Part shown: positions 8,329-62,919 of the stretch, piece by piece
Numbering within the stretch: the first letter of the stretch is position 1
Layout of the letters: each line of letters opens with the position of its first letter
DNA from: Escherichia phage vB_EcoM_HZ_ZJUN4
Sequence record: PP216085
DNA length: 64,000 bases
Strand: one strand, 5' to 3'
Notes under the pieces: generated by a model
Database searches by the model: none
Told to the model about the DNA's origin: nothing
Seen by the model: the letters and a program-made list of their open reading frames with translations, nothing else
Translations under genes and position numbers: made by a program

Positions 8329-9333
8329 ATGTTTAAAAAGTATAGCAGTCTTGAAAATCATTACAATTCTAAATTCATTGAAAAACTTTACAGTTTAGGA
8401 TTGACTGGCGGCGAATGGGTAGCTCGTGAAAAGATTCATGGCACAAATTTCTCACTAATTATTGAACGCGATAAAGCAACTTGTGCTAAACGTACTGGAC
8501 CGATTCTTCCTGCTGAAGATTTCTTTGGGTATGAAATTATTCTAAAGAATTACGCTGATTCCATTAAAGCAGTACAAGATATTATGGAAACTTCGGCAGT
8601 TGTATCTTATCAAGTCTTTGGCGAATTCGCTGGACCTGGCATTCAGAAGAATGTTGATTATGGTGATAAAGATTTTTATGTATTTGACATTATTGTTACT
8701 ACCGAAAGTGGTGATGTGACTTATGTCGATGATTATATGATGGAATCATTCTGTAATACATTTAAATTTAAAATGGCTCCACTTTTAGGTCGCGGTAAAT
8801 TTGAAGAGCTTATTAAATTGCCAAATGATTTAGATTCTGTCGTTCAAGATTATAATTTTACAGTAGACCATGCTGGATTAGTTGATGCAAATAAATGCGT
8901 TTGGAATGCCGAAGCAAAAGGCGAAGTATTTACCGCTGAAGGTTATGTATTGAAACCTTGTTATCCTTCTTGGATGCCTAACGGAAATCGTGTAGCTATT
9001 AAATGCAAGAACTCTAAATTTAGTGAAAAGAAAAAGTCTGATAAGCCTATTAAAGCTAAAGTTGAACTGTCAGAAGCTGATAACAAATTGGTGGGAATTT
9101 TAGCTTGTTACGTTACACTGAACCGAGTAAATAACGTTATTTCTAAAATTGGCGAAATTGGTACAAAAGATTTTGGAAAGGTGATGGGACTAACTGTTCA
9201 AGATATTTTGGAAGAAACTTCTCGTGAAGGTATTACTCTAACTCAAGCAGATAATCCTTCTTTGGTTAAAAAGGAATTAGTTAAAATGGTACAAGATGTA
9301 CTTCGTCCGGCTTGGATTGAATTGGTAAGTTAA
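8329..9333 (+). CDS. rnlB: RNA ligase 2 (Rnl2)
   Basis: 334 aa; adenylylation lysine motif EKIHGTN; N-terminus [16 protein letters not shown] recognised. Confidence 0.9.
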
Positions 9334-44404: not shown

Positions 44405-44477
44405 TGGGAATTAGCCAAGTTGGTAAGGCACTGGATTTTGATTCCAGGATGCAAAGGTTCGAGTCCTTTATTCCCAG
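44405..44477 (+). tRNA. tRNA-Gln (anticodon UUG)
   Basis: Cloverleaf folded by hand: acceptor TGGGAAT/ATTCCCA, anticodon loop TTTTGAT, T-loop GGTTCGAGTCC. Confidence 0.8.
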
Positions 44478-44478
44478 C

Positions 44479-44565
44479 GCGAGAATGGTCAAATTGGTAA
44501 AGGCACAGCACTTAAAATGCTGCGGAATGATTTCCTTGTGGGTTCGAGTCCCACTTCTCGCACCA
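44479..44565 (+). tRNA. tRNA-Leu (anticodon UAA), type II, CCA encoded
   Basis: Acceptor GCGAGAA/TTCTCGC, anticodon loop CTTAAAA, long variable arm, GGTTCGAGTCC. Confidence 0.8.
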
Positions 44566-44570
44566 AATTT

Positions 44571-44644
<74 letters not shown>

Positions 44645-44654
44645 ATTTAATTTA

Positions 44655-44728
44655 CTCCGTGTAGCTCAGTTTGGTAGAGCGCCTGATTTGGGATCAGGAG
44701 GTCCAAGGTTCAAATCCTTGTATGGAGA
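44655..44728 (+). tRNA. tRNA-Pro (anticodon UGG), no encoded CCA
   Basis: Anticodon stem CCTGA/TCAGG, loop TTTGGGA; GGTTCAAATCC T-arm. Confidence 0.8.
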
Positions 44729-44730
44729 CT

Positions 44731-44820
44731 GGAGGCGTGGCAGAGTGGTTTAATGCACCGGTCTTGAAAACCGGCAGTCGCTCCGGCGACTCATAGGTTC
44801 AAATCCTATCGCCTCCGCCA
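44731..44820 (+). tRNA. tRNA-Ser (anticodon UGA), type II
   Basis: Acceptor GGAGGCG/CGCCTCC, anticodon stem CCGGT/ACCGG, loop CTTGAAA, long variable arm. Confidence 0.8.
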
Positions 44821-44825
44821 GTTTT

Positions 44826-44901
44826 GCTGATTTAGCTCAGTAGGTAGAGCAACTCACTTGTAATGAGAAGGTCGGCGGTTCGATTCCGTCAATCAGCACC
44901 A
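44826..44901 (+). tRNA. tRNA-Thr (anticodon UGU)
   Basis: Acceptor GCTGATT/AATCAGC, anticodon loop CTTGTAA, GGTTCGATTCC T-arm. Confidence 0.8.
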
Positions 44902-44902
44902 A

Positions 44903-44977
44903 GGCCCTGTAGCTGGAAGGTTCAAGCAAGCGACTCATAATCGCCAGATGGTGGTTCAATTCCACCCAGGGCCACCA
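44903..44977 (+). tRNA. tRNA with CAU anticodon (Ile by synteny with T4, reading AUA after modification; Met not excluded)
   Basis: Acceptor GGCCCTG/CAGGGCC, anticodon loop CTCATAA, GGTTCAATTCC T-arm. Confidence 0.7.
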
Positions 44978-44990
44978 AATTAAGAATTAA

Positions 44991-45077
44991 GGGGAGTTAT
45001 CCCGTAGAGGTAGCGGTGTGGACTGTAAATCCATTGTCATTGCGACTCGGGTGGTTCGACTCCATCACTCCCCACCA
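44991..45077 (+). tRNA. tRNA-Tyr-like (anticodon GUA), type II
   Basis: Acceptor GGGGAGT/ACTCCCC, anticodon stem GTGGA/TCCAT, loop CTGTAAA, long variable arm, T-arm GGTGG-TTCGACT-CCATC; D-arm pairing imperfect. Confidence 0.6.
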
Positions 45078-45081
45078 ATTT

Positions 45082-45156
45082 GGATGTGTAGCTCAATGGC
45101 AGAGCGATCGCCTGTTAAGCGATTGGTTATAGGTTCGAATCCTATCACGTCCGCCA
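45082..45156 (+). tRNA. tRNA-Asn (anticodon GUU)
   Basis: Acceptor GGATGTG/CACGTCC, D-stem GCTC/GAGC, anticodon stem ATCGC/GCGAT, loop CTGTTAA, GGTTCGAATCC T-arm. Confidence 0.7.
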
Positions 45157-45160
45157 AATC

Positions 45161-45236
45161 CGAGGCATAGCTCAGAAGGAAGAGCAAGGACCTTCTAAGT
45201 CCTAGGTCGTAGGTTCGATCCCTACTGCCTCGACCA
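45161..45236 (+). tRNA. tRNA-Arg (anticodon UCU)
   Basis: Acceptor CGAGGCA/TGCCTCG, D-stem GCTC/GAGC, anticodon stem AGGAC/GTCCT, loop CTTCTAA, GGTTCGATCCC T-arm. Confidence 0.8.
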
Positions 45237-56936: not shown

Positions 56937-57149
56937 ATGCTACAATTAACTGAAAAGCAACTTCGCAATCTTACTGTGCTTCAATTAGATGAAATTCGTA
57001 GGGAAGTTGGAAATATCATTTCAGCTTTGCGTCGAGAAGTATCGCTCAACCAATCTCCGGCAGACTATACTAGATTGCGAAATTTTGAAAAATACCTTGA
57101 TAAAGTTAAGGCCGTGCACCGGCATAAAGTAAATACAGGACAAAAATGA
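56937..57149 (+). CDS. small helical protein (rI.1 position), paralog-family-like
   Basis: 70 aa, [12 protein letters not shown]...FEKYLDKV. Confidence 0.5.
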
Positions 57150-57161
57150 TAGGAGGCCTTT

Positions 57162-57455
57162 ATGGCCTTAAAAGCAACGGCACTATTCGCCATGCTAGGA
57201 TTAGCGTTTGTTTTATCTCCGCCGATTGAAGCGAATGTCGATCCTCATTTTGATAAATTTATGGAATCTGGTATTAGGCACGTTTATACACTTTTTGAAA
57301 ATAAAAGCGTAGAATCGTCTGAACAATTCTATAGTTTTATGAGAACGACCTATAAAAATGACCCGTGCTCTTCTGATTTTGAATGTATAGAGCGAGGCGC
57401 GGAGATGGCACAATCATACGCTAGAATTATGAACATTAAATTGGAGACTGAATGA
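57162..57455 (+). CDS. rI: lysis inhibition regulator RI
   Basis: 97 aa; N-terminal signal-anchor MALKATALFAMLGLAFVLSPPIEA; position next to tk. Confidence 0.85.
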   Translation: MALKATALFAMLGLAFVLSPPIEANVDPHFDKFMESGIRHVYTLFENKSVESSEQFYSFMRTTYKNDPCSSDFECIERGAEMAQSYARIMNIKLETE

Positions 57456-57838
57456 AATTCAGCGACTTTTCACAAAGTGGAAAACCTTCAAAGGCAGATG
57501 AATACTTAGGTTTATTAATGGCTGCACAAGCTTATTTTCATTCTGCACATTTTGAAACTAAAAGTTATGCTAGACACAAAGCATACGATTTTATTTTTTC
57601 CGAGTTGCCAGATTTGATTGATAAATTTGGTGAGCAATATTTGGGGTATTCTGGTAGAAAATACACACCTTCAATTCCAGATGCTAGTAAACTTCCTACA
57701 GACACAATTAAAATGATTGATCGTATACTAGACCAATCTAACATCATTTACAAAGAAATGCCTCCAGCCATTCAAAGCACGATAGATGATATTACTGGAA
57801 TGTTTTATCAAAGTAAATATCTTCTTTCCCTAGAATAA
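57452..57838 (+). CDS. hypothetical protein (rI.-1 position)
   Basis: 128-aa ORF, ATGA overlap with rI stop. Confidence 0.5.
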
Positions 57839-57843
57839 CATTA

Positions 57844-57866
57844 GTCTCCTTCGGGAGACTTTTTTC
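57844..57866 (+). terminator. intrinsic terminator
   Basis: GTCTCC-TTCG-GGAGAC then TTTTTT. Confidence 0.75.
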
Positions 57867-57875
57867 ATTTTACCG

Positions 57876-57905
57876 GTTTACTTTCCATTTGAGCTGTGAT
57901 ACTAT
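57876..57905 (+). promoter_or_regulatory. T4-type early promoter
   Basis: GTTTAC, spacer, GTGATACTATACAACTATC. Confidence 0.6.
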
Positions 57906-57933
57906 ACAACTATCGGATAAAGAGGAGAACATC

Positions 57934-58122
57934 ATGAAAATTGAAGCACTTAATCAAGAAGGAAATATCTACGTCATCATTAATGGTGATTTTTTCGTCG
58001 ACATGGATGAAGTTACTAGTGAAGAACTTGAAGAACTTCTTAAGAAACGTTATGATATGTGTGATGAAGCTGCAACTCATATGGCGTGTGCAATATTCTC
58101 TCTTTCATATGTGGTGGAATAA
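57934..58122 (+). CDS. hypothetical small protein
   Basis: Start at ATG 57934 after a GAGGAG RBS; 62 aa. Confidence 0.5.
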
Positions 58123-58325
58123 TGATTAGTATCGAACAAGCAGATAAAATTAAAGAATTGGTAGCTTTAATTCGCAAAGCAGATGAGGAACTTAGTGACT
58201 TTGCTTGGTTTTCGGCAGGCATTGCAAATAAAGGTATTGAAGAATTTGAAGCTAAAGTTGATAATGCTGTAGAAGCTTTAGATATGTTTCTTGATGAAAT
58301 TATCGATCACAATACGAGAGTTTAA
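58122..58325 (+). CDS. small helical protein, paralog family
   Basis: TAATG overlap; [17 protein letters not shown]...LDMFLDEI. Confidence 0.5.
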   Translation: MISIEQADKIKELVALIRKADEELSDFAWFSAGIANKGIEEFEAKVDNAVEALDMFLDEIIDHNTRV

Positions 58326-58327
58326 GT

Positions 58328-58522
58328 ATGCTGACACACGAACAGTTTGAAAAAATCATTAAATTAGCACGTGATGTTGAAATAGATTCATATCAATTAG
58401 CAGTTGAGCATTGTGAAGGATATTCATACGAAGGTATAGCAGCAGCTAAAAGAGATTTGGATAAATCTAAAGCTAAGTTAGTTCAATATCTTGAAATGAT
58501 TAGGTGGAATAATGAAAACTGA
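58328..58522 (+). CDS. small helical protein, paralog family
   Basis: 64 aa, MLTHEQFEKIIKLARDV...LVQYLEMI. Confidence 0.5.
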   Translation: MLTHEQFEKIIKLARDVEIDSYQLAVEHCEGYSYEGIAAAKRDLDKSKAKLVQYLEMIRWNNEN

Positions 58523-58685
58523 AAAGCAGATGTTTTTAATGAAGCTAATTGAAGAATATGCTAATGCAGTTTCTGACTATGAGTGTTCTTCTCGTGAAAG
58601 GGGTATAGCTTTCGCAAAAGAAGAAATGAAAATCATGGTTGATGCTCACACAAAGCTTCAGAATTTTATTGAAAACGTCATTTAA
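58512..58685 (+). CDS. small helical protein, paralog family
   Basis: 57-aa ORF below the track cutoff, hand-translated: MKTEKQMFLMKLIEEY...LQNFIENVI. Confidence 0.4.
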   Translation: MKTEKQMFLMKLIEEYANAVSDYECSSRERGIAFAKEEMKIMVDAHTKLQNFIENVI

Positions 58686-58687
58686 CG

Positions 58688-58717
58688 GTTTACAAGTTGG
58701 CAAGGTTATGGTATAGT
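58688..58717 (+). promoter_or_regulatory. T4-type early promoter
   Basis: GTTTAC, spacer, TATGGTATAGTAAT. Confidence 0.5.
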
Positions 58718-58849
58718 AATCTTGTCAACTGCTAAGGAGAAGAGAATGAAAATTTTGTTTGTTGTGTATGTGATGATTCAATATAATTACCCAATGTTTA
58801 CTTATAATCTGGTGAACAACATTATTGATATTATTCAAAGGAGCATGTA

Positions 58850-59035
58850 ATGACAAGTGAGCAGGCTTTTAAATTAAGAGAATTAATTGAGATGTATAGT
58901 AAAGCTGTTCATGCATCAACAGTTATTGATGAATCAGCTTTCTCCGGACATGCTAATAAGATTAAATACAAAACTCTTATGGAAGAAGCTAAAGTAAATC
59001 TTGATTCTTATATTGAAACTTTAATTGGTGAATAA
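58850..59035 (+). CDS. small helical protein, paralog family
   Basis: 61 aa, MTSEQAFKLRELIEMY...LDSYIETLIGE. Confidence 0.5.
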   Translation: MTSEQAFKLRELIEMYSKAVHASTVIDESAFSGHANKIKYKTLMEEAKVNLDSYIETLIGE

Positions 59036-59036
59036 C

Positions 59037-59303
59037 ATGAGCTTTCCTAAATTAGAAGTAGGCGATTTAGTCTTAACAAAATTGTGGAATGATGCTCAAT
59101 CAGTAGAAATCTGTCAATATCGTGGAGCAACAGGTAATTTGATGTACACGATTTATAACCCAGAAATTTTGTTAGAGTGTCATTTGGAACGCTTTATAAA
59201 AGACACCGATAGTATGCCTTATAGTGTATCGATTGTACGTAAATCTGATACAAAGGAATACTCTAAAATTTTAGAACAAATTCATGCCAATAAAAAGGAT
59301 TAA
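59037..59303 (+). CDS. hypothetical protein
   Basis: Start at ATG 59037 immediately after the previous stop; 88 aa. Confidence 0.5.
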   Translation: MSFPKLEVGDLVLTKLWNDAQSVEICQYRGATGNLMYTIYNPEILLECHLERFIKDTDSMPYSVSIVRKSDTKEYSKILEQIHANKKD

Positions 59304-59304
59304 T

Positions 59305-59835
59305 ATGAAACGATTAGTACTAGAAGTTAGTTCACTTTTTGGTGAATTGGCTATAGAAAAAGTAAATAATATGTATCGTTTGACGCAAGAAGACGATATG
59401 CTATATTTTACGCCTAGCGAAATTATTCATTTAACCCAAATTGAAAAACCTTACACTGATAAAATTGTAAGCATTAATGATGAGCATAAAATTCATTTTT
59501 ATTCTTTATGCCCAGGATTTAATATTGAAAGCGAGTCAATATGCTTATCAATTAATAATTGGGATAATTTTATAGCTAAGATTAAATATTTCTATTATTC
59601 TAATGAAAGAAAACATGGTTTAAAATGGTTTAAAAATTGCAATGCTATTATTACTAACGCTTGTAATCAAAATTATGAAACTGTTTTAAATGTATCAAAA
59701 TGCTATGAAGAGGGAGATGTCTTAACTATTCGTCAATCGGTAAATGATGTTAATGTTGTTGTATTAAACAAAGAAGAAGCTGTTTTATTAAAGACTTATC
59801 TTGATTCTGTCATTCCAACTATGATTTCAAAGTGA
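59305..59835 (+). CDS. hypothetical protein, tandem paralog A
   Basis: Start at ATG 59305 (AAGGA RBS); C-terminus ...EEAVLLKTYLDSVIPTMISK. Confidence 0.5.
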   Translation: MKRLVLEVSSLFGELAIEKVNNMYRLTQEDDMLYFTPSEIIHLTQIEKPYTDKIVSINDEHKIHFYSLCPGFNIESESICLSINNWDNFIAKIKYFYYSNERKHGLKWFKNCNAIITNACNQNYETVLNVSKCYEEGDVLTIRQSVNDVNVVVLNKEEAVLLKTYLDSVIPTMISK

Positions 59836-59841
59836 GGAAAT

Positions 59842-60363
59842 ATGTTTATTTCAAGTGGAAGTGGTTTAATTCGTGTTGAATTTAAAAATGACATCTTTCT
59901 TATTCAAGGAGATGATATTATTAAAATGAGTTATGACGAAATCAAGAAAATTTGTCATGCTCTTGAAAGTCATGGAAAAGTGAACGCTGTTATTGATATT
60001 GGCGATTTATGGGTGACACTTTATGAAGTATCCGAAGGATTTAACATTGAAGATGAAAATAACATTTTAGCTATTGATAAAAGAAGTGATTTGTTTGATG
60101 TATTAAAAATTTATGAACAGCCAAATGGCGGAAGAAAAGCTGTATTGATTTATCAAAAACCGCATTCATGCGGAACTGCTTCAATCATTTCAAATATTGA
60201 AGATGAAACTGATACTTATATGTGTGTTTTAAAAGCTGGTGGTGATCGTCATCCGGATTTTATTTCTATTCGTCAAAACAATGAAGAAATTTCATTATCA
60301 AAATCAGAAGCTGAAGCTATGATTAAGTATTTAACAACTGTTACACCTTCAATGAAAGGATAG
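59842..60363 (+). CDS. hypothetical protein, tandem paralog B
   Basis: 173 aa; C-terminus ...SEAEAMIKYLTTVTPSMKG parallels the upstream gene. Confidence 0.5.
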   Translation: MFISSGSGLIRVEFKNDIFLIQGDDIIKMSYDEIKKICHALESHGKVNAVIDIGDLWVTLYEVSEGFNIEDENNILAIDKRSDLFDVLKIYEQPNGGRKAVLIYQKPHSCGTASIISNIEDETDTYMCVLKAGGDRHPDFISIRQNNEEISLSKSEAEAMIKYLTTVTPSMKG

Positions 60364-60365
60364 TT

Positions 60366-60827
60366 ATGATTATTAATGAAAGCTCTTGGCACTATAAATT
60401 ATTCAAAATGTTTAATGATGAATGGAAACGACCTAAGACACTGTGCGCGTATTTTTGGTCTATTGTTATTCCTACATTTTTCGTTTCTTTTTTCGGATGT
60501 ACTATACTCGCAGGTCTAACTATCATCTGCGCAGAAATCATACAGAAATGGCTTATTTTTGGTAGTTTATGGACTCTTATTCCATCAGCATTTATACTTG
60601 CCATTTTGCTTGTTTTACTTATTATCGGTTCATTTGTTATTCCTGCACATTTGCGTGAAAAATATAAAGATTATAAATGGAAAAAGGATTATGCTTTACA
60701 TGTAGAAAATATTGATAGGGCGTATAAAGGTTTACCTCCTATTCAACCCAAGAAATCTATTATCGTCAAATTTTTAAAAGCCCGTAAAGCTAAAGTATGT
60801 CCTGTTATTGAATATAAGGCTGAATGA
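60366..60827 (+). CDS. membrane protein (two predicted TM helices)
   Basis: 153 aa with two long hydrophobic segments; ATGA overlap with the downstream gene. Confidence 0.5.
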   Translation: MIINESSWHYKLFKMFNDEWKRPKTLCAYFWSIVIPTFFVSFFGCTILAGLTIICAEIIQKWLIFGSLWTLIPSAFILAILLVLLIIGSFVIPAHLREKYKDYKWKKDYALHVENIDRAYKGLPPIQPKKSIIVKFLKARKAKVCPVIEYKAE

Positions 60828-61837
60828 TGAAAACAGTAATGAAAAGCTATTTTGGTAGTCATCTTTATGGAACTTCTACTCCAGAATCTGATGTAGATTT
60901 TAAAGAAATCTTTGTTCCTCCTGCTCGCGATATTCTTATCGGAAATGTTAAAGAGCATATGAGTAAAAACACTAACAACACATCATCTAAAAACACTAAA
61001 GATGATATTGACCATGAACTATACAGTCTTAAATATTTCTTTAAATTAGCAGCAGATGGTGAAACTGTAGCATTGGATATGCTCCACACTCCACCTGAAC
61101 TGGTAGTTAAATCTGATTTGCCTGATGTATGGAAGTTTATTCAAGACAATCGTTCTCGTTTTTATACAACTAACATGAAATCTTATTTAGGATATGTCCG
61201 CAAGCAAGCTTCTAAATATGGTGTCAAGGGTTCTCGTTTGGCCGCATTGCGTGATGTATTGAAAGTAGTTAATCAAATCCCCGATCAGTGGGTTGATTAT
61301 CAAGAAGACGGTTCCATTAAGCAGCGTCGCACTAAAGTTGAAGATATTAAGCATCGTCTTCCAGAAAACGAATTCTGTGAATGGGTGTTCCATAATCATG
61401 AGAAAACAGGCCCACAAATGTTCTATACTGTGTTGGGTCGTAAATATCAGACAACTCTTTCTCTTATTGAGCTTAAGCAGTCTTTGAATAAACTTGATGC
61501 TGAATACGGCGAACGTGCTCGTAAAGCTGAAGCGAATGAGGGCATTGACTGGAAAGCACTGAGTCATGCTTGCCGCGGTGGACTCCAACTATTGGAAATT
61601 TACAAAACTGGTGACTTAGTCTATCCACTTCAAGATGCTCCGTTTATTCTCGACGTGAAGCTGGGTAAACATCCATTTAAAACTGTTCAAGAGTTTTTGG
61701 AAGATGTGGTCGATCAAGTAGAAGCAGCATCCATTGAAGCTTCTAAGAACGGTATGCAGCAAAAAGTAGACATGGGTTTCTGGGATGACTTCCTTGAGAG
61801 GGTTTATCTTGAAAACCACCGAAGTTATTATAAATGA
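60824..61837 (+). CDS. nucleotidyltransferase-fold protein (Pol-beta-like)
   Basis: 337 aa; N-terminal GSHLYGTSTPESDVDF fits the NTase G[SG]...[DE]h[DE] signature. Confidence 0.5.
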   Translation: MMKTVMKSYFGSHLYGTSTPESDVDFKEIFVPPARDILIGNVKEHMSKNTNNTSSKNTKDDIDHELYSLKYFFKLAADGETVALDMLHTPPELVVKSDLPDVWKFIQDNRSRFYTTNMKSYLGYVRKQASKYGVKGSRLAALRDVLKVVNQIPDQWVDYQEDGSIKQRRTKVEDIKHRLPENEFCEWVFHNHEKTGPQMFYTVLGRKYQTTLSLIELKQSLNKLDAEYGERARKAEANEGIDWKALSHACRGGLQLLEIYKTGDLVYPLQDAPFILDVKLGKHPFKTVQEFLEDVVDQVEAASIEASKNGMQQKVDMGFWDDFLERVYLENHRSYYK

Positions 61838-61839
61838 TA

Positions 61840-61868
61840 GGGAGCCTTCGGGCTCCCTTTTTTGTTTA
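61840..61868 (+). terminator. intrinsic terminator
   Basis: GGGAGCC-TTCG-GGCTCCC then TTTTTTTGTTT. Confidence 0.75.
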
Positions 61869-61886
61869 AAATGACGTCACAAAGTT

Positions 61887-61916
61887 GTTTACAGGCATAA
61901 AGCTTTATGGTATTAT
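61887..61916 (+). promoter_or_regulatory. T4-type early promoter
   Basis: GTTTAC, spacer, GGTATTATACAACTATCAAC. Confidence 0.6.
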
Positions 61917-61950
61917 ACAACTATCAACTGATACGGATTTGGAGAATAAA

Positions 61951-62919
61951 ATGAAAACTGTAACTATCAATAAGGGTATCTACTTCGGTAAAGAAATCTC
62001 TGGAACTTTTGAGCTCTTAGGCGAATGGTTCCCAGATAATGCTCCGGTAGATGCACAAGGAGATGGTAAAGTTTTTGTTGAAATTGACGGCAAACGCCGC
62101 GGTGTTTGGGTTTACAAATCAGATATTTCATATGATGGTGTAAAAGTTGAAGAAGTTAAAGAATCATATGAAGATATGAAAACCCGCATTAATAAAAGAT
62201 TTAATGTTATGGGAATGATGACGAATGGTATTATTAACGGAAATATTCGTTCATTAATTATCTCTGGTGCGGCGGGTATTGGTAAAACGTATTCTTTAGA
62301 TAAAGCTTTGAATAAAGCAAATGATAATGGATACATTGAATATAAAAGCATTAATGGTAAAATCTCTGGTATCGGTCTTTATGAACAGCTTTGGAATAAT
62401 CGTGAAGAGAATTCTGTCCTTTTGATTGATGATGTGGATGTTTTCTCTGATATGGACATTCTTAATCTTCTGAAAGCTGCTCTGGACACTGGAGAGTCCC
62501 GTAAAGTCTGCTGGAGCACTGAATCTTCTTACTTAGAAGAAAAAGACATTGACCGTGAGTTTGAATTTAAAGGAACGATTGTTTTTATCACAAACGTTGA
62601 CATTGACCGCGAATTAGACCGTGGTACTAAACTTGCTCCACACTTACAAGCATTAGTGTCCCGCTCAGTTTATTTGGATTTGGGTGTTCACACTAATGAA
62701 GAAATTATGGTCAGGGTTGAAGATGTTATTCTTTCAACTGACATGATGCAAAAGCGCGGTCTTTCTGATGAAGAAACTTATAAAGCATTATCATGGATGA
62801 AAGTTAATGTTAATCGTTTACGCAATGTTTCACTGCGTACTGCTCTTTATCTTGCTGACTTTATTATGACCGACAAAAACGGTTGGGAAGAAATTGCTGA
62901 GGTTACTCTTCTGAAATAA
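61951..62919 (+). CDS. AAA+/P-loop ATPase
   Basis: Start at ATG 61951 with GGAGA RBS (322 aa); Walker A GAAGIGKT, Walker B VLLIDDVD. Confidence 0.6.
   Translation: MKTVTINKGIYFGKEISGTFELLGEWFPDNAPVDAQGDGKVFVEIDGKRRGVWVYKSDISYDGVKVEEVKESYEDMKTRINKRFNVMGMMTNGIINGNIRSLIISGAAGIGKTYSLDKALNKANDNGYIEYKSINGKISGIGLYEQLWNNREENSVLLIDDVDVFSDMDILNLLKAALDTGESRKVCWSTESSYLEEKDIDREFEFKGTIVFITNVDIDRELDRGTKLAPHLQALVSRSVYLDLGVHTNEEIMVRVEDVILSTDMMQKRGLSDEETYKALSWMKVNVNRLRNVSLRTALYLADFIMTDKNGWEEIAEVTLLK

Follow-up and report, generated by a model that had tools for sequence, protein, structure and literature searches.

Among the relatives of the gene considered here are two Pseudomonas enzymes of the RlaP family, PfRlaP and PaRlaP, which were characterized by Carruthers, Fatma and Huang in December 2025 (bioRxiv 10.64898/2025.12.29.696909). 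In that study RNA was the sole Escherichia coli macromolecule to be labeled, and the enzymes attached one or two nucleoside monophosphates to the 3'-OH of RNA, with a preference for damaged molecules. RlaP was required for transfer RNA (tRNA) that was missing nucleotides to regain aminoacylation, and its 3'-OH product fits RNA ligases of the 5'-phosphate type. The same preprint recounts that tRNA-Lys cut by PrrC is repaired by Pnkp and Rnl1 of phage T4, and that nucleases of the RloC type also excise a nucleotide, a loss that plain religation cannot make good. A comparative study of jumbo phages has reported that the distribution of RlaP mirrors that of RNA ligases, and the role predicted there was the refilling of lost nucleotides before ligation. 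Here we describe a member of this family in a stretch of 64,000 nucleotides, referred to below as the window, from Escherichia phage vB_EcoM_HZ_ZJUN4 (sequence record PP216085). The locus consists of two consecutive open reading frames (ORFs), of which ORF A specifies a small membrane protein and ORF B a nucleotidyltransferase (NTase); their coordinates are given in Table 1. A tblastn search of phage records found ORF A in 920 of them and ORF B in 1564, and both are real genes.

The window belongs to a Tequatrovirus, and in the part with these genes it matches hundreds of genomes of that genus at 96-97% identity. ORF B and the T4 protein NrdC.11 share 98% amino-acid identity over 337 residues, and the two genes are syntenic; in each phage the gene stands before nrdC.10, from which it is separated by an identical terminator hairpin and by the same early promoter. 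Sequence and position together place ORF B in the T4 nrdC.11 orthologous group. The likeness does not extend to the 5' neighbor, which is mobD in T4 instead of the y05I-like paralog and ORF A of the window. The T4 protein is catalogued as T4p095 (NP_049709.1), bears the UniProt-style name '38.9 kDa protein in nrdC-mobD intergenic region' and is already called a nucleotidyltransferase in RefSeq, while nrdC.11 orthologs were matched to COG3541 (nucleotidyltransferase domain) as early as 2006. The identification of ORF B as an NTase, made in a first-pass annotation of this stretch from the letters alone, is correct but was already known, and the present finding mostly re-identifies a catalogued T4 gene. 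That annotation had also held that its proposal would fall if the gene proved to be a known T4 gene of established function. The gene is indeed a known one, but its function is a predicted one, so that this condition holds by half. NrdC.11 is conserved across the Straboviridae and beyond, as the number of phage records given above indicates, and in the laboratory it is dispensable; T4 survives deletion of the nrdC.11-mobD.3 segment. The names given to these genes in public records vary. Many GenBank phage records call NrdC.11 orthologs 'thioredoxin', and small mobD.x ORFs appear as 'molybdopterin-guanine dinucleotide biosynthesis protein MobD'; both labels look like errors that have spread from the gene names.

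Assignment to the RlaP family is based on the following comparisons. PF10127 (RlaP) is the sole Pfam family above its cut-off on ORF B, with a score of 43.8 bits against a gathering cut-off of 23 and an E value of 3.4e-11, and in PHROGs the protein falls in phrog_388, nucleotidyltransferase. Among the matches listed, nearly all ORF B homologs carry a precomputed PF10127 match. Scans of NCBIfam and PADLOC returned no family for either ORF A or ORF B. The N-terminus of ORF B, MMKTVMKSYFGSHLYGTSTPESDVDF, is an exact fit to the pattern hG[GS]-x10-DhDh. To place these residues in a wider context, we pooled the results of two homolog searches into an alignment of 126 sequences, comprising T4-like proteins and distant relatives down to 24% identity. 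Invariant in this alignment are S22, D23, D63, G79, G229, K244, H248, A249 and R251, and conservation reaches at least 90% at G11, S12 and D25. As judged from the sequence, the GS-x10-DxD motif and the third aspartate of ORF B make up the canonical catalytic set of the Pol-beta superfamily. The catalytic role of Asp63 would follow by analogy with the superfamily pattern given in the RlaP preprint (10.64898/2025.12.29.696909). PfRlaP and PaRlaP resemble ORF B in belonging to PF10127, in possessing the GS motif and the set of three aspartates, and, to judge from the model described below, in combining an N-terminal NTase domain with a helical domain.

An AlphaFold model of ORF B, built from the 126-sequence alignment, had a predicted local distance difference test score (pLDDT) of 90.9 and a predicted template modeling score (pTM) of 0.79. 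In the model an N-terminal NTase domain of the alpha/beta type leads into a helical segment, after which come a beta subdomain (residues 155-209) and long C-terminal helices (214-336), with the GS/DxD motif positioned on the helix that follows strand 1 and on strand 2. When the model was compared with the Protein Data Bank (PDB) by Foldseek, a check proposed in the first-pass annotation, the matches were weak, and 13 of the top 14 were NTases. A comparison with viral models returned 34 structures at E <= 0.001, of which the named ones are mostly annotated as nucleotidyltransferases. These results, together with the family match and the conserved G11, S12, D23, D25 and D63, bear out the Pol-beta-type signature that had been read from the N-terminus, and the fold of ORF B in the model is that of a Pol-beta-type NTase. 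When ORF B, its N-terminal 130 residues and the 126-sequence profile were searched against the sequences of the PDB, nothing usable came out, in a copy of the database that evidently lacks the PfRlaP structure. The crystal structure of PfRlaP is described as an NTase domain with a C-terminal helical domain whose last helix packs back onto the NTase domain, whereas the ORF B model has, in addition to its NTase domain and helices 214-336, the inserted beta subdomain. This subdomain, encoded at about 61302-61450 of the window, is conserved in the NrdC.11 clade and is not mentioned for PfRlaP. The combination of a Pol-beta NTase domain with a C-terminal helical bundle is also found in kanamycin nucleotidyltransferase/ANT(4'), in LinB and in the Exiguobacterium protein 3c18. 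The C-terminal helices of the model match bundles of the HEPN type. HEPN RNases carry the motif Rx4-6H. A catalytic HEPN RNase was considered for these helices and rejected, as the conserved residues, K244-x3-H248-A-x-R251, differ from that motif.

What, then, might NrdC.11 do? From the properties of its relatives we consider it most likely, with a probability of roughly 0.6, that the protein extends damaged RNA 3' ends in the course of phage RNA repair. The biochemistry of RlaP, the excision of a nucleotide by RloC and the co-distribution of RlaP with RNA ligases are the grounds from which we infer the RNA substrate and the link to repair in T4-like phages. NrdC.11 would act as a template-independent NTase, in which G11/S12 together with D23, D25 and D63 bind a Mg2+-nucleoside triphosphate, and would lengthen damaged RNA by one or two nucleotides at its 3'-OH, acting chiefly on tRNA halves that have been trimmed by a host anticodon nuclease. 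The phage polynucleotide kinase/phosphatase and the 5'-phosphate RNA ligases would then reseal the full-length tRNA. The T4 RNA ligases are of the 5'-phosphate type, and it is a ligase of this type that the 3'-OH product of RlaP needs. The proposed setting is the T4 pathway in which Pnkp and Rnl1 counter PrrC. nrdC.11 is unlinked to pseT or rnlA, and its part in this pathway is put forward by analogy. The classic Pnkp/Rnl1 route reseals such tRNAs without replacing the lost nucleotide, and NrdC.11 would fill that gap. The RlaP biochemistry thus leads to the hypothesis that T4-like phages can put back the nucleotides which RloC and similar anticodon nucleases take out. NrdC.11 would then be an early-expressed, non-essential accessory of counter-defense, and ORF A would be a separate small inner-membrane protein, co-transcribed with NrdC.11 as a common syntenic neighbor and not as an obligate partner. 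By analogy with the tested enzymes, RNA repair is the best-supported role for ORF B, over signaling of the cGAS kind.

Several observations weigh against this reading. The RlaP preprint itself calls the function of T4 NrdC.11 unknown and places the protein in cluster 5 of its PF10127 similarity network, whereas PfRlaP and PaRlaP belong to cluster 1a (10.64898/2025.12.29.696909). Residues 7-135 of ORF B align to just positions 23-142 of the 249-position PF10127 model. The beta subdomain of the NrdC.11 model is absent from the text description of PfRlaP. Because of this subdomain, and because NrdC.11 lies in a different cluster of the network from the tested enzymes, its substrate could differ from theirs. 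The best match of the model among solved structures is HalB, an NTase that synthesizes DNA. The operon setting described for the RlaP family includes RtcB or an RNA ligase, whereas ORF B stands outside any such operon here; the NTase gene is not beside an RNA ligase, the window's sole ligase-like match being located about 52 kb from it. Finally, the family to which ORF A belongs is found directly beside RNA-repair genes more often than expected, and ORF A may not be functionally independent. The missing ligase neighborhood leaves membership in the RlaP family intact, linkage to a ligase being common but not general in the family. The ligase-like match, at about 8605-8811 of the window, is a weak one (34% over 71 residues) to an RNA ligase of the PF09414 type, and it is probably the ortholog of rnlB (gene 24.1).

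The first-pass annotation had further described ORF B as overlapping ORF A by ATGA. This tetranucleotide is indeed common to the end of ORF A and the start of ORF B at 60824-60827, as read from the first of two in-frame ATGs (60824-60829). However, the NrdC.11 orthologs of T4 and T2 have 336 residues and begin with MKTV, and the sequence AAGG at 60816-60819 is spaced 7 nucleotides (nt) upstream of the second ATG, at 60827. For these reasons the start used in vivo is probably the ATG at 60827, which would yield a product of 336 amino acids and reduce the overlap to 1 nt, as TGATG instead of ATGA. Translational coupling between ORF A and ORF B was considered as a sign of partnership and was rejected, since gene overlaps are the norm in this genome. 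Among the 55 adjacent gene pairs on the plus strand of the window, 18 overlap, 5 of them by ATGA, and in 28 the spacing is 10 nt or less. The coupling of ORF A to NrdC.11 is no more than most neighboring genes show in this genome.

Inspection of the hydropathy of ORF A reveals two hydrophobic blocks, at residues 28-56 and 63-94, with six residues between them, which agrees with the two transmembrane (TM) segments assigned previously. The N-terminal 27 residues are mildly basic and the 59-residue C-terminal tail is strongly so, with 16 lysines and arginines against 7 aspartates and glutamates. Because both termini are basic and flank the two hydrophobic blocks, both are predicted to be cytoplasmic, and ORF A is predicted to be a two-TM hairpin of the inner membrane. 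The protein matches phrog_944 ('membrane protein') at 1.1e-48, and no family of Pfam, NCBIfam or PADLOC reaches its cut-off. A word-indexed homolog search with ORF A yielded just 12 close relatives, while an exhaustive profile search gave 728 matches at E <= 1e-3 among representatives of 50%-identity clusters. By sequence comparison ORF A is a member of a large, uncharacterized family of phage membrane proteins for which there is no Pfam model. Conserved motifs in ORF A are SWH (residues 7-9), LCxYFW (26-31) and KA+KxKxCP (138-146). In the family as a whole the terminal motifs, predicted to be cytoplasmic, take the form M-x-I-N-x-x-SWH, LCxYFW and KAKKxKxCPxIEF, while the hydrophobic core is variable; the invariant columns of the family alignment are partly so by construction, as the sequences were filtered on those motifs. 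AlphaFold, given 10 close sequences, produced a poor model of ORF A (pLDDT 72, pTM 0.26, a single long helix), which was not used for fold comparison.

If ORF A and NrdC.11 formed an obligate pair, the two genes would be expected to travel together. In an alignment of the DNA of the window with that of T4, homology ends at 59860 and returns at 60823, exactly at the start of nrdC.11. Where the window has a second y05I-like gene and ORF A (59861-60822), T4 has the HNH homing endonuclease mobD, which nrdC.11 overlaps. T4 and RB3 have kept NrdC.11 and are devoid of ORF A, and in Vibrio, Sinorhizobium and Shewanella phages, too, NrdC.11 is unaccompanied by the membrane gene. To examine the association from the other side, 122 IMG/VR loci were picked by the ORF A family protein alone, using a 17-sequence alignment, and, with the window and loci collected before, were sorted at 60% identity into 62 lineages. 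In 13 of these an NrdC.11-like NTase is present within 5 kb, always downstream and on the same strand, and 49 have no such NTase nearby. The membrane gene abuts the NTase directly in 3 of the 13, and in the remaining 10 from one to three ORFs intervene. The two genes abut in Tequatrovirus, Mosigvirus and Dhakavirus, whereas in Jiaodavirus and Kanagawavirus they are set apart by one or two small ORFs unrelated to them, and in Acinetobacter phage Ac42 by a single ORF. The pairing of ORF A with the NTase is a conserved synteny of one phage clade, often interrupted and lost in T4, and it is not obligate. The notion of a self-contained two-gene module, which the first-pass annotation had favored, is not sustained by these data, nor by the lack of a promoter at ORF A described below.

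A looser association is another matter, since the neighbors of the membrane family include, in several phages that are not related to one another, RNA-repair genes other than RlaP. It is conceivable, although we hold it to be unlikely, that ORF A and NrdC.11 are functionally linked, with the SWH...CP membrane family serving as an accessory to the pathways of RNA repair in phages, so that the pair in the window is one form of a recurring cassette of a membrane protein and a repair enzyme. The membrane protein might then tether, regulate or sense for the adjacent enzyme of RNA end healing, or provide a complementary counter-defense at the level of the membrane. Consistent with this idea, the RlaP NTase lies downstream of the membrane gene in the 13 lineages already mentioned, and the order of the two genes is kept from the Tevenvirinae to Acinetobacter phages despite divergence of the membrane protein to 26-30% identity. 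In T4-like phages of Aeromonas (loci L067 and L080), the gene directly downstream encodes a PF09414 RNA ligase with a PHA02142 OB domain, and a PF09414 ligase is 1.3-3.8 kb away in L111, L115 and L087. In 93-kb Pseudomonas phages (L051-L053; for example vB_PaeM_C2-10_Ab02) the membrane gene stands among genes for a Rnl1-type ligase, an AAA_33 kinase and a phosphoesterase. A HAD_PNKP phosphatase begins 9 nt downstream of the membrane gene in L087, a locus with no relative in the annotated phage set, and in L101 a protein with a HAD_SAK_2 ("Swiss Army Knife RNA repair") domain ends 7 nt upstream of it. Where repair genes other than RlaP occur in the locus, 4 of 7 are immediate neighbors of the membrane gene, against about 13% expected (binomial P about 0.008). 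When RlaP is included, about 20 of the 62 lineages have a repair-type gene within 5 kb. Nevertheless, T4 and RB3 retain NrdC.11 in the absence of ORF A, and about 41 of the 62 lineages have no repair-type gene within 5 kb, as judged from matches to the RlaP profile and from homology with those repair genes that had been found, with Pfam applied to the three nearest neighbors. Other neighbors of the membrane gene are mixed and include ParB-like/DUF6551, ERCC4, GmrSD_N, primase-helicase and RNase H proteins. The sample is a small one, drawn from lineages that are not independent and set against a rough null model, and accessory and counter-defense genes cluster in phage genomes anyway. A tblastn search with a divergent member of the family returned almost exclusively T4-like phages and hence provided no independent sample. 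That the family serves, phage by phage, as the functional partner of an RlaP NTase, of a Rnl1- or Rnl2-type ligase or of a PNKP-type phosphatase is accordingly a tentative proposal to which we give rather long odds, and any role for ORF A is one that we infer. The association is suggestive and unproven, and it may be the sole new element of this analysis. Should it prove true, RNA repair in phages would gain a component that was not expected, and the link would point to a membrane-linked step in phage counter-defense against host toxins that cut RNA.

Two further explanations depart from RNA repair altogether. ORF B might be a signaling or small-molecule NTase, making a cyclic or linear messenger in the manner of CD-NTases and cGAS, or adenylylating a small molecule or a protein as do ANT, LinB and DrrA, with the membrane protein as effector or target. 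The Pol-beta fold is common to all of these, and the C-terminal helical part of ORF B is like the C-terminal bundles of HEPN proteins and kanamycin NTase. However, no cGAS or CD-NTase structure was among the Foldseek matches of the ORF B model and no PADLOC profile, for CBASS or any other defense system, matches ORF B; its sole Pfam family is RlaP, and the RlaP enzymes tested so far modify RNA as the only macromolecule of E. coli. We regard this explanation, which takes up the cGAS/CD-NTase enzymes named in the first-pass annotation, as highly improbable. Resemblance to the Hailong system raises a second possibility. As reviewed in PMC13434031, Hailong (Tan et al. 2025) is a two-gene defense system composed of the membrane channel HalA and the NTase HalB; HalB makes an oligodeoxyadenylate that keeps HalA closed, and if the NTase is missing the membrane protein is toxic. 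By analogy, ORF A and NrdC.11 might form a Hailong-like pair, in which an oligonucleotide made by the NTase gates the membrane protein, or an anti-Hailong pair, which refills the host signal that keeps HalA shut. The order of the genes, a transmembrane gene and then an NTase, is that of the Hailong operon. Here, however, the genes are carried by a phage, and in T4 the NTase persists although the membrane gene is missing. The reciprocal situation, the membrane family without an NrdC.11-like NTase, holds for 49 of the 62 lineages and would be lethal for a HalA-like protein. Further, HalB has 217 residues, whereas NrdC.11 has 337 and extra domains; ORF A and NrdC.11 have no sequence similarity to any PDB chain, Hailong entries included, and a search of the PDB with the ORF A profile found no HalA chain at E <= 10. 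No PADLOC profile matches either protein, in a library of 2023 in which Hailong models were not confirmed. A Hailong-like or anti-Hailong role seems to us scarcely credible, and RNA 3'-end extension by NrdC.11 remains the preferred interpretation.

The transcriptional context of the two genes is summarized in Table 1. The first-pass annotation was right that the two overlapping ORFs, both on the plus strand, are followed by a terminator, and its hairpin is a strong one. The terminator, AGGGAGCC-TTCG-GGCTCCCT at 61839-61858 and then TTTTTTG, begins one base past the ORF B stop codon and has a predicted folding energy of -18.3 kcal/mol (z = -5.0; 0 of 200 shuffled sequences fold as well). It is real and conserved in T4, but it does not belong to the pair alone, as ORF A has no promoter of its own before it and the pair ends a longer operon. 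Consensus scans of the DNA directly 5' of 60366 were negative for a strong sigma-70 site, for a MotA box and for a late promoter, and a pattern search of 57000-62200 found neither a MotA box nor a late promoter (TATAAATA). The terminator scan showed no plus-strand terminator between those at 57843-57860 and 61839-61858, and the ORFs from 58747 to 61837 stand close together, either overlapping or separated by 2-6 nt. The transcription unit that holds ORF A and ORF B likely starts at the candidate promoter at 58689, of the T4 early type, which shares with the one at 61888 the form GTTTACA-N17-TGGTATAGT/TATTAT. Given this promoter, the terminator after ORF B, the absence of a terminator between them and the tight packing, ORF A and nrdC.11 are predicted to be the last two genes of an early operon of seven or eight.

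Table 1. Features of the ORF A-nrdC.11 locus, in window coordinates; values given with family names are E values.
Feature	Coordinates	Strand	Description	Basis
ORF A	60366..60827	+	153 aa (amino acids), predicted two-TM membrane protein	ORF list
ORF B	60824..61837	+	337 aa from first ATG, NrdC.11 ortholog, RlaP-family (PF10127) Pol-beta-type NTase	
Predicted catalytic motif G11-S12 ... D23-V-D25	60854..60898	+	hG[GS]-x10-DhDh	codons read
Asp63, predicted third metal-binding carboxylate	61010..61012	+	start of model strand 62-68	invariant in alignment
Upstream terminator	57843-57860	+	nearest plus-strand terminator 5' of 58689	
Early-type sigma-70 promoter candidate	58689..58717	+	extended -10, GTTTACA-N17-TGGTATAGT	consensus scan, 10/12
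MobD.1 ortholog	59284..59835	+	183 aa, y05I-like	PF24449 4.6e-40, PF24448 2e-17
Second y05I-like paralog	59842..60363	+	173 aa, ends 2 nt before ORF A	PF24449 1.6e-33, PF24448 1.5e-23
Intrinsic terminator	61839..61865	+	8-bp GC-rich stem, TTCG loop, T-run	
nrdC.10 early-type promoter	61888..61916	+	extended -10, conserved in T4, marks downstream unit boundary	10/12
nrdC.10	61951-62919	+	P-loop ATPase	phrog_1250, weak AAA/STAND matches

Two y05I-like genes precede ORF A in the predicted operon. The protein encoded at 59284..59835 is 81% identical to T4 MobD.1, whereas its paralog has 25% identity to the same T4 protein, and T4 is without this second gene. On the other side, nrdC.10, with its own early promoter, follows NrdC.11 in the Tevenvirinae and in Acinetobacter phage Ac42, and it is as faithful a neighbor of the NTase as is ORF A. 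A search of the recent literature on nrdC.10 found none. In some close relatives, for example phage BW-1, about 620 extra bases lie between nrdC.11 and nrdC.10 (L002, 5036-5771), which are not present in the window at 61838-61950; this insert contains two short ORFs annotated as fragments of an RNA polymerase ADP-ribosylase. Elsewhere in the window, at 44405-45236, ten genes for tRNAs form a cluster (Gln, Leu, Gly, Pro, Ser, Thr, Met-CAT, Tyr, Asn and Arg). T4 presumably has eight, in which case those for Tyr and Asn would be extra here.

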